Below are positions 51,300 through 54,532 of a stretch of 64,000 nt of DNA, piece by piece (the stretch's first letter is position 1; every line of letters begins with the position of its first letter). A program made the position numbers and the translations under genes. This stretch comes from a virus (Duplodnaviria; Caudoviricetes): IMG/VR virus record IMGVR_UViG_3300042013_000067, positions 32,001-96,000 of that record; one strand, 5' to 3'. The notes beneath the pieces were generated by a model, which had not been told where the DNA came from, made no database searches, and saw only the letters and a list, made by a program, of their open reading frames with translations.

Positions 51300-51313
51300 G
51301 AGAACTATATAGT
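51300..51313 (+). promoter_or_regulatory. Putative early promoter, GAGAACTATATAGT copy 1
   Basis: Identical 14-mer at 51766; contains palindrome ACTATATAGT; 30 nt upstream of an ATG. Confidence 0.55.
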
Positions 51314-51765: not shown

Positions 51766-51779
51766 GAGAACTATATAGT
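51766..51779 (+). promoter_or_regulatory. Putative early promoter, GAGAACTATATAGT copy 2
   Basis: Identical to 51300-51313, preceded by an A-rich tract. Confidence 0.55.
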
Positions 51780-52061: not shown

Positions 52062-52104
52062 AGGGGTGGGGCCTTCGGGCCCCATTCCCTGTTTTTCCTT
52101 TTTT
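52062..52104 (+). terminator. Canonical Rho-independent terminator
   Basis: AGGGGTGGGGCC-TTCG-GGCCCCATTCCCT plus long T tract. Confidence 0.85.
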
Positions 52105-52118
52105 GTTAGGAGTGCGTC

Positions 52119-52499
52119 ATGTCAGAAGAAAACCTGTCGTCGGATCCTGAACAGATCAAGGCGACGTTAGCAGCATTGGCTGCAAAGTACGGCGAGCACC
52201 TTCGCAAGTTCAGTGAACTTAAACCCGGTACCATTCTCAAAGTGTACCGTAACCACAGTAACCCACTCGCCCATCCCTACGTGGAGAACTGGGTTGAACA
52301 ACTGGCGGTGGTGATCGAGATCCAACCTGTGTTCGTCTGGGTATACAACACCCCACATCAGCTACCAAAGATGGCCGCCCTCAAGTTCGAGGATCGTGTC
52401 TTGGTTCAGGTTGAAGATGCTGGTAGTGAACCACGCTTGCTTTCCATGTATGGCAAATGGGAAGTGTACAACACTGATGCAGCTCCTAGCGCACTGTGA
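52119..52499 (+). CDS. Hypothetical protein
   Basis: 126 aa, AGGAG SD. Confidence 0.75.
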   Translation: MSEENLSSDPEQIKATLAALAAKYGEHLRKFSELKPGTILKVYRNHSNPLAHPYVENWVEQLAVVIEIQPVFVWVYNTPHQLPKMAALKFEDRVLVQVEDAGSEPRLLSMYGKWEVYNTDAAPSAL

Positions 52500-52941
52500 T
52501 CTGTTTGAGACCCCAGGCGATGTTCGAGTCATTACGGTAAACTGTAAAGGCGCTATGGGTCTGGGTGTTGCACAGACCTTTCGAGATCGCTATAAAAAGC
52601 AATACTGGGAATACAAGCGCCGTTGCCATGGTGGCTTTGTACACCTAGGGGTGCCTGAACTGATTGTTACCGATGACGGACTTAAGTGGTTGTTGTTTCC
52701 CACTAAGTACGATTGGCGACACGCTTCAGAATACCACTGGATTCATTGGGGTCTTCAGTTTATCATCGAGAATATCGGTGAACCCGACTTCGTACAACAC
52801 GACGAGAAGATCGTGTTCCCGCCTTTAGGGTGTGGACATGGGCAATTAGACTTCCGTCATATTCACCGACTCATGGGCATGTTCGATGGACACGTCCCAA
52901 ACCCTATCGTACTTATAGCACCACAGGACTACGACATATGA
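52477..52941 (+). CDS. DarG/TARG1-like macrodomain ADP-ribosylhydrolase
   Basis: DLFE...[44 protein letters not shown] match the DarG macrodomain, including the FPTK lysine. Confidence 0.85.
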
Positions 52942-53384
52942 AGCCACTACGTCAAGCAGTTTACTCCAGCCGTACTGCAGACAAGTTCGTTGTGCGTCTG
53001 CCGGATGGCATGCGTGAGAAGATCAGCGAACGTGCACGGCTTAACCACCGCTCGATGAACTCACAGATCGTGGCCACACTGGAGAAAGATCTGGCAATCG
53101 AGTTGACCGAGGCAGAGCGGGCATTGTTGGAACAGGAAGCACATACCCGCAACGACGTCACTACACCGGTGTCAGTGGGTATGTTGGCCTATTATCACTT
53201 CGACGAGAAACCCGACGAGTTTTCCTTGGGTGTGATCACCGCCATTGCTGTAAGCTTCGACGACAAGGTATTGGTTACCTTCGACATCTCGCCTAAGCAG
53301 TGGCCTACCAACATCGTCGGTTCACTCAACGGCGACCCACGCCGCTGGTTCCCAATTGCCAACATCAAACCTTTCCTGATCTAA
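52938..53384 (+). CDS. amrZ: AmrZ/AlgZ-like Arc-family ribbon-helix-helix regulator with a novel C-terminal domain
   Basis: [49 protein letters not shown] closely matches the Pseudomonas AmrZ N-terminus; ATGA overlap. Confidence 0.88.
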
Positions 53385-53400
53385 CCACAAGGGGCGTTAT

Positions 53401-53766
53401 ATGGATCAGCTTATGGCTGCCTACGAGCAGCTGCTTGCTGTCTACGATGTGTTACACGGAATGGCGCAACAGAACATTCTCGTGATCCTCATCGTTAACG
53501 CCCTGACTACCTTTGCCTTGGCTTTTGCCAAAGCATTCCAGTCCCGCAACATCGTACTGGGTCACTACTGGGCTGCGTACGTTACGTCTTGGGGTGTCAC
53601 TACCCTTGAGGTAACGAACATCAGTCTGATTGTGGTAGGTGGTTGGTGGTTGATATTCTCCGCCGGGTTCGGCGGTTCCCTAGGTTGTGTGGTCGCCATG
53701 GCCATGCACGAAAAATACTTCATGACGCGAAAGCTTGCCGAGGAGGCAAACCATGAAAAATACTAA
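53401..53766 (+). CDS. Multi-pass small membrane protein
   Basis: 121 aa, three hydrophobic segments. Confidence 0.7.
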   Translation: MDQLMAAYEQLLAVYDVLHGMAQQNILVILIVNALTTFALAFAKAFQSRNIVLGHYWAAYVTSWGVTTLEVTNISLIVVGGWWLIFSAGFGGSLGCVVAMAMHEKYFMTRKLAEEANHEKY

Positions 53767-54532
53767 GACTACTGGCATCGTATTCACCACTCCGTTCAGC
53801 TCCCTGATCGAACCCCTGAAACAGACCGACCTGGTCAACCTCAAAGCCATGCCGATGGAAAGCATCCCAGCCGGCGCTAACCCGTTTCACCACGATGCCT
53901 CCAGCATGGGCACTAACCTGTCTCGTGGCTGGATGATGATGCATCAAGGTGAGTTCTCGGATCACGGTCTGACTCAACCGTACTTGGTCAACACGGTTAC
54001 AGGTCAACGCTTTCTGCTGAACTTCGAAGCGCAAGAAGACACCTACGTCGATGCCGTGTGGTGTGGCAAGTTGGACATCGACCACGGTGAGCTATACGTG
54101 TGGAGCCGCAGCTACCAGTTCGCTGAGTTCTACACACTGCTCGACCATCTGCGCATCAAGTCGATGGGTAAGCAAGGGTTGGTGCGTGGCTACAAGCATT
54201 CTCCGGTTTATGTCTACGTCGGTGAATACTTCGTGCGTTACGACGTGGTGTGTGATGGTGAGGCATTCGATAAGTGGTGCAAGGAAAACGATCTGCTGAT
54301 CGAACGTGACGACCCTGCGGTCATCGCGGCCAAGCGTTATGAATCGGCACAGTTGATGGTAGCCGCCACCAATGACCAAGTCGGTCCTGTCGTGATCATT
54401 GACGAGGATTCAATCCGTAAACGTCTGGTGTTTGATGAGCGTGAACATACAGCCAATGACGTCCTGCGTGCAAAGCATGGACTGCCAATGGACAAAGGCG
54501 TTACCGTAAGAGTCATTCCAGATGGTGAGTGA
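53753..54532 (+). CDS. Hypothetical protein
   Basis: 259 aa from ATG 53753 with GAGGAGG SD. Confidence 0.8.
   Translation: MKNTKTTGIVFTTPFSSLIEPLKQTDLVNLKAMPMESIPAGANPFHHDASSMGTNLSRGWMMMHQGEFSDHGLTQPYLVNTVTGQRFLLNFEAQEDTYVDAVWCGKLDIDHGELYVWSRSYQFAEFYTLLDHLRIKSMGKQGLVRGYKHSPVYVYVGEYFVRYDVVCDGEAFDKWCKENDLLIERDDPAVIAAKRYESAQLMVAATNDQVGPVVIIDEDSIRKRLVFDEREHTANDVLRAKHGLPMDKGVTVRVIPDGE

Follow-up and report, generated by a model that had tools for sequence, protein, structure and literature searches.

An AmrZ-type DNA-binding head joined to a predicted Tudor/SH3-like barrel in a regulator of a Noxifer-like jumbo phage

The regulator gene and the phage that carries it

We analysed a stretch of viral DNA of 64,000 nucleotides (the window). 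It covers bases 32001-96000 of a virus record that is complete, has direct terminal repeats and measures 283,622 bp. The gene of interest encodes an AmrZ-like regulator and lies between a macrodomain gene and a membrane-protein gene. The features of the locus, in window coordinates, are as follows.

52063..52088, plus strand: strong terminator-like hairpin, preceding the co-directional gene run 52119..54532 that contains the regulator
52477..52941, plus strand: macrodomain gene, upstream of the regulator (PF01661, E 7.4e-5; phrog_335, E 6e-27)
52938..53384, plus strand: coding sequence of the AmrZ-like regulator (P0001), 148 aa, orthologue of Noxifer gp106
52938..53099, plus strand: regulator residues 1-54, extended N-terminus and AmrZ-type ribbon-helix-helix (RHH) head (3qoq_A, PF03869, contact residues)
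53100..53150, plus strand: regulator residues 55-71, linker with a predicted helix (58-69), conserved in the Noxifer-like clade only
53151..53381, plus strand: regulator residues 72-148, predicted acidic Tudor/SH3-like beta-barrel (AlphaFold2 model, Foldseek, structural search, profile search, net charge)
53401..53766, plus strand: membrane-protein gene, downstream of the regulator (phrog_7045, annotated holin, E 1.7e-27; Noxifer gp107 annotation)

The open reading frame of the regulator has a longer in-frame alternative start, a GTG at 52830. We placed the start at the ATG at 52938 because the relatives and host AmrZ all start at the aligned M-(R/K)-P-L, with MKPLRQ of the regulator aligning to MRPLKQ of host AmrZ. 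The TGA stop of the macrodomain gene and the ATG of the regulator overlap as ATGA, indicating that the two genes are probably translationally coupled. The product of the upstream gene, a stand-alone macrodomain protein, is a candidate ADP-ribose eraser. The downstream phrog_7045 membrane protein has three helices, and its gene starts 17 nt after the regulator stop; the other genes in the island around the regulator are small and have no known function.

Among isolated phages, the closest to this one is Pseudomonas phage Noxifer (278 kb), whose host of isolation was P. fluorescens SBW25. The full-length identity between its gp106 (YP_009609021), annotated as an 'Arc-like transcriptional regulator', and our regulator is 66%, and the neighbouring genes agree, so that the two differ in sequence divergence only. 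In the record, as in Noxifer, there is also a homologue of gp54, the nuclear-shell protein of phiKZ (chimallin; E 1.3e-112 for the record), and the phage therefore presumably forms a phage nucleus. The public sequencing runs that contain the stretch were rhizosphere metagenomes only, one of them probably made from the source sample; all were DNA runs, and no RNA run was among them. The regulator is the only Arc-family gene in the 283,622-bp record. We counted one such gene each in Noxifer, PaBG and HRDY3 and none in phiKZ, while no chimallin homologue was found in PaBG or HRDY3. This distribution of Arc-family and chimallin genes indicates that the head-plus-barrel architecture spans different jumbo-phage groups as an accessory trait.

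Two classes of promoter-like sequence were seen in the genome. The first is a family of eight members with a sigma-70-like layout (TTGAtT, 17 nt, TATAtT and a conserved leader, GTCTTTGTGAATTAGGAGCAAT), located at genome positions 83304, 83770, 130968, 148046, 148502, 184704, 260782 and 269588; it sits in a phage that has its own RNA polymerases. Just upstream of the gene island, at window positions 51300-51313 and 51766-51779, lie the genome's only two copies of an exact 14-mer, GAGAACTATATAGT, within which lies the palindrome ACTATATAGT. We considered this 14-mer as an operator and rejected it, since GGC half-sites are lacking from it and it falls within the promoter-like family. The second class, TTTAA(A/G)-n-n-CTATATCAC, resembles the AT-rich early-promoter consensus of phiKZ-type phages and was found at genome positions 5498, 11668, 25064, 25403, 40607 (window 8607), 150471, 192045, 198047 and 236319, one copy directly preceding the chimallin gene.

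An AmrZ-type head and a barrel tail

Residues 1-54 of the regulator matched the AmrZ crystal structure chain 3qoq_A (E 3.2e-17), and residues 11-52 matched the Pfam Arc family PF03869 (E 3.6e-17; 62.4 bits against a cut-off of 20.4). Both matches are far beyond chance. A stretch of 14 residues in the head is letter-for-letter the same as in AmrZ, and the earlier note on this DNA was thus right to describe the AmrZ N-terminus and recognition strand as nearly unchanged. In AmrZ, the bases are read by K18, V20 and R22, helped in DNA contact by S13 and R14 of the extended N-terminus, R28 and N43, while dimer-dimer contacts are made by H38 (through its backbone), H39, R40 and E51 (Pryor et al., PMC3325190). 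The comparison showed that K16, V18, R20, S11, R12, R26 and N41 of the regulator are the same residues as K18, V20, R22, S13, R14, R28 and N43 of AmrZ, and that H37, R38 and E49 are the same as H39, R40 and E51. The sole change at the published contact positions is from H38 of AmrZ to N36 of the regulator, at the backbone-only contact. Since the contact residues are conserved, the regulator would be expected to bind DNA as AmrZ does.

Over the whole head, the regulator and the host protein share 76% identity, and every difference falls in the two helices, which have moved further from the host than those of any other phage head in the comparison. The hydrophobic core of the RHH fold is nevertheless kept (F17, V19, L21, M25, I29, A33, M40, I44 and L48). 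Across 24-27 phage proteins, the segment S10-R26 and the R-S-M-N-S turn were invariant, whereas their tails share only about 20-35% identity. The 12 chromosomal Pseudomonas AmrZ proteins that we compared have the same head with almost no variation, and their S10-R26 segment is identical to the phage version. From a reading surface that stays fixed while the tails diverge, we infer a constraint imposed by sites that lie outside the phage's control, those of the host.

The tail gave a different picture. Residues 60-148 had no Pfam or PHROG family match, the tail had no significant match among PDB sequences, and its profile showed no similarity to the host AmrZ tail (the tetramerisation domain, residues 67-108). 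An AlphaFold2 model built on a 24-sequence alignment contained the two RHH helices, a linker helix (58-69) and an all-beta domain (83-145; pLDDT 83-89). That the C-terminal domain is beta-rich and unlike the tetramerisation tail, as the note had claimed, is borne out by both the model and the profile comparison. A Foldseek search with the barrel model returned small Tudor domains (TMt 0.65-0.70, E about 0.02), and an exhaustive structural search returned Tudor, chromo-barrel, BAH and KOW barrels (Z 5.0-6.4, rmsd 2-3 A over 50-57 residues). The ESM Atlas search gave generic small barrels only (SH3_HelY, CAP-Gly, integrase-type), below the lead threshold, and the BFVD search gave no significant match besides Noxifer gp106. 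The model suggests that the tail is a Tudor/SH3-like barrel of five to six strands, the scores allowing a statement on its general arrangement only.

We then compared the tail profile with 1.84 billion representative proteins. The short matches all carried an Arc head and the same tail; the long ones were WD40-repeat proteins scored over many repeats, which we regarded as spurious. At the sensitivity of HMMER, the barrel thus appears so far only on AmrZ-type heads and nowhere else. The net charge of the tail is -3 in the regulator and ranges from -5 to +1 across the family; such an acidic tail makes a second DNA-binding surface unlikely. Most likely the barrel serves as a protein-protein contact surface, with the regulator itself or RNA polymerase as candidate partners. 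A complex prediction with two copies of residues 53-148 scored 0.02 against a mark of 0.42, which counts neither for nor against self-association.

Relatives and published precedent

Full-length relatives of the regulator (56-71% identity) were all located on contigs of 268-283 kb. More distant relatives, of 111-161 aa, combine the head with a shorter barrel marked by the pattern W-x-P-x-x-G-x-x-V ... G-x-I ... P-x-x-x-(I/L)-(K/Q)-P. They occur in large phage genomes (contigs of 99-277 kb), near genes for a phiKZ inner-body protein, thymidylate synthase and kinase, ribonucleotide reductase and NAD-dependent ligase. The gp184 protein of PaBG (138 aa) shows the W-C-P ... G-I-G-I ... I-R-P pattern of the tail family. 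Compared singly with the tail profile, neither the PaBG tail (E 0.16) nor the HRDY3 tail gave a significant match, whereas with a profile built from the PaBG clade the alignment extended across the entire domain (E 3.2e-4, probability 39%). A model of a relative 92% identical to PaBG gp184 showed the head connected by a disordered linker to a barrel of five strands, the latter modelled at pLDDT 86-91. The earlier note had treated the protein as a foreign domain on a host head; as a one-off chimera this did not stand, the same architecture being widespread in large phages. Head-plus-barrel is an old phage architecture found in many diverged large-phage lineages, PaBG probably among them.

The HRDY3 protein XDJ14992 (L009:2498-3112; 205 aa) has an AmrZ-type head, a linker of ~100 residues that looks helical by eye, and a C-terminal barrel-like sequence pattern. 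This longer variant suggests that the linker is a variable module among head-plus-barrel proteins.

The closest characterised protein is AmrZ (AlgZ) of P. aeruginosa (108 aa, 3QOQ), which resembles the regulator in the extended N-terminus, the recognition strand, the helix-2 N-cap and the H-R...E residues, the heads being about 71-76% identical. The regulator differs in an N-terminus two residues shorter and in a 77-aa stretch, predicted as a Tudor/SH3-like barrel, in place of the C-terminal tetramerisation domain. AmrZ is chromosomal and under AlgU control, whereas the regulator is a gene of a lytic jumbo phage. Lacking the defining tail, the regulator is not an AmrZ orthologue. Judged by its sequence, it belongs with the mobile AmrZ homologues already published, of which 14 have been described in Pseudomonas (Borges et al., bioRxiv 10.1101/673095) and with which it shares coding on a mobile element and perfectly conserved DNA-contact residues. 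In that study, six mobile homologues were assayed for complementation of a PA14 amrZ deletion, which five of them achieved; the homologues of PaBG, phi3 and JBD68 repressed a csy1 reporter (Csy CRISPR-Cas) in P. aeruginosa (bioRxiv 10.1101/673095). With PaBG, AmrZ-like action in vivo has already been shown for a protein whose architecture is probably that of the regulator. PaBG gp184 is like it in having the head and, in the model of its relative, the disordered linker and the five-stranded barrel. The regulator has a longer barrel with an inserted strand pair, kinship between the two barrels is seen at the profile level only (E 3.2e-4), and its phage encodes chimallin, unlike PaBG, where no homologue was detected.

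Another phage-encoded AmrZ-like RHH factor is Gp53 of PhiPA1019, an early protein that binds the fleQ, pslA, amrZ and ftsZ promoters (PMC13650114) and differs in coming from a 94-kb phage. Mnt of P22 likewise combines an RHH head with a C-terminal module on which the higher-order state depends, and it gave a weak sequence match (E 0.029); in Mnt this module is a coiled coil rather than a barrel, and the specificity for operators differs. Phage AmrZ look-alikes have therefore already been published and tested, and the new point is the architecture, a head joined to what is predicted to be a small Tudor/SH3-like barrel. We found no description of the barrel tail in a limited literature search.

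Host and phage DNA as targets of the regulator

We consider it somewhat better than an even chance (a probability of about 0.55) that the regulator mimics or overrides AmrZ, binding AmrZ-type sites of the host and rewiring the AmrZ regulon, a proposal drawn from sequence comparison. Since all contact residues are kept, binding of the head to AmrZ-type sites is the natural expectation. Two heads would pair into a dimer, and two dimers would sit on GGC-N5-GCC or AT-GCC-AT sites, as those of AmrZ do. The sites read would lie on the host chromosome, which remains in the cytoplasm and is not enclosed by the phage nucleus, and the regulator would act most likely early in infection. It would take over AmrZ control of the flagellar (fleQ), exopolysaccharide, c-di-GMP, motility and matrix genes during infection. 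With the barrel, as a putative protein-protein contact surface, in place of the tetramerisation tail, the phage protein may be freed from AmrZ's own oligomerisation.

Several points count against this proposal, one being the divergence of the head helices from those of the host. The AmrZ motif carries little information, 11% of background fragments containing it, and does not allow targets to be predicted. Phages of the phiKZ type transcribe with their own polymerases, and host mRNA drops quickly, which makes the gain from re-tuning host promoters uncertain. If the regulator were imported into the phage nucleus, it would be barred from host DNA. As to immunity, the nucleus of nucleus-forming phages shields phage DNA from DNA-targeting CRISPR-Cas, and because this phage encodes chimallin, the motive for repressing CRISPR is weak. 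The earlier suggestion that the phage rewires the host regulon or its immunity therefore keeps its first part, in that the conserved contact residues favour binding to the same sites, and is weak in the second.

The regulator could instead act on phage DNA in the nucleus and control genes of the phage itself, as an autorepressor or a temporal switch, in the manner of Arc and Mnt of P22; Arc-family proteins are classical phage repressors. The amrZ1 operator consists of GGC, five AT-rich bases and GCC (PMC3325190). Sites of this layout were enriched in the phage genome (35 against 9.6 +/- 2.6 expected), and 18 of them lie in the 6% that is intergenic. More than half (19/35) read GGCYTTATGCC, a sequence present in 13 copies in Noxifer, against one in HRDY3 and none in PaBG and phiKZ; the control gave 1 in this genome and 0 in Noxifer. 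However, the conserved core of these sites, YTTATGCYG (48 copies), follows a GC-rich hairpin whose last three stem bases supply the first GGC, which is absent or shifted in many copies. PaBG and HRDY3 also carry AmrZ-like genes without enrichment of GGC-N5-GCC, and a phage-internal circuit could drift, yet the head is identical to the host's in very different phages. We regard self-regulation as unlikely. On the opposite flank of the hairpin there is a mirrored C-TATG. The recurrent element as a whole reads CGGACATAG, the hairpin GCCCCTCCC-N4-GGGAGGGGC, then TTTATGCCGT, at about 25 intergenic sites (e.g. window 22697, 33769 and 61352). In phiKZ, late promoters have no more than a T-A-T-G consensus at the start site (PMC7598289), and by its sequence the hairpin-TATG element is probably a bidirectional terminator flanked by phiKZ-type TATG late promoters. 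We rejected the GGC-N5-GCC sites as operators, their layout being a by-product of this hairpin-plus-TATG element. The commonest intergenic element nonetheless ends in GGC-TTTAT-GCC, the amrZ1 layout, and contains the late-promoter TATG; it is for this reason that we also considered whether the AmrZ-type head of Noxifer-like phages reads phage DNA and marks or gates late promoter/terminator junctions, which we hold to be highly improbable. If it were so, it would bear on the source of the promoter specificity of the non-virion RNA polymerase.

Three further explanations concern what the protein does rather than which genome it reads. The barrel may be an RNA-polymerase-binding Tudor domain, of the CarD/TRCF-RID or PcrA/UvrD type, that holds host RNA polymerase at AmrZ sites or obstructs it there. 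The best structural matches of the PaBG-clade model were indeed PcrA/UvrD Tudor domains (Z 7.1, 6.9, 6.6 and 6.4), followed by CarD (Z 6.7), CdnL (6.1), the Mfd RID (6.1) and the NusG KOW domain (6.0). Three PaBG-clade members gave sub-threshold Pfam matches to CarD_TRCF_RID (E 0.0098 and 0.046) and PcrA_UvrD_tudor (E 0.028), and the clade matched the E. coli Mfd RID locally in G-x-x-V-x-H-x-x-x-G-x-G (E 0.0034). Yet every Z was below 8 and tied with eukaryotic Tudor and chromo barrels, the regulator's own clade had no RID match in Pfam (E up to 10), in hhalign or among the best 50 structural matches, and the barrels of the two clades are linked at E 3.2e-4 and a probability of 39% only. We judge polymerase binding quite unlikely for the regulator, a low-weight lead seen in the PaBG clade only, which would refine the proposed override of AmrZ and replace no part of it.

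A dominant-negative poison, in which the regulator forms RHH heterodimers with host AmrZ and, having no tetramerisation tail, leaves AmrZ inactive, would agree with the kept hydrophobic RHH core and the different tail. The base-contact residues are invariant, however, although a pure poison would not need them, and what the mobile homologues did in the published assays was to complement an amrZ deletion, not to reproduce its phenotype (bioRxiv 10.1101/673095); we think this very unlikely. The names that the protein carries in the source ('plasmid stability protein') and in PHROG ('partition protein ATPase'), together with sub-threshold matches to the RHH proteins FitA, ParD and HicB, would suit a plasmid-type partition or stability protein or a type II antitoxin. 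These matches are below the cut-offs and cover the generic RHH region only; the neighbours vary between subfamilies, with no conserved adjacent toxin or ParA across the family, and the genome is that of a lytic jumbo phage. A partition or antitoxin role is extremely improbable.

If the regulator does override AmrZ as proposed, nucleus-forming jumbo phages that have their own RNA polymerases would still steer the surface, motility and biofilm programme of the host, and would do so through a copy of the DNA-reading head of a host master regulator. The barrel, and not the head, is the unexplored part of the AmrZ mimics and would be the place to seek how they differ from AmrZ.
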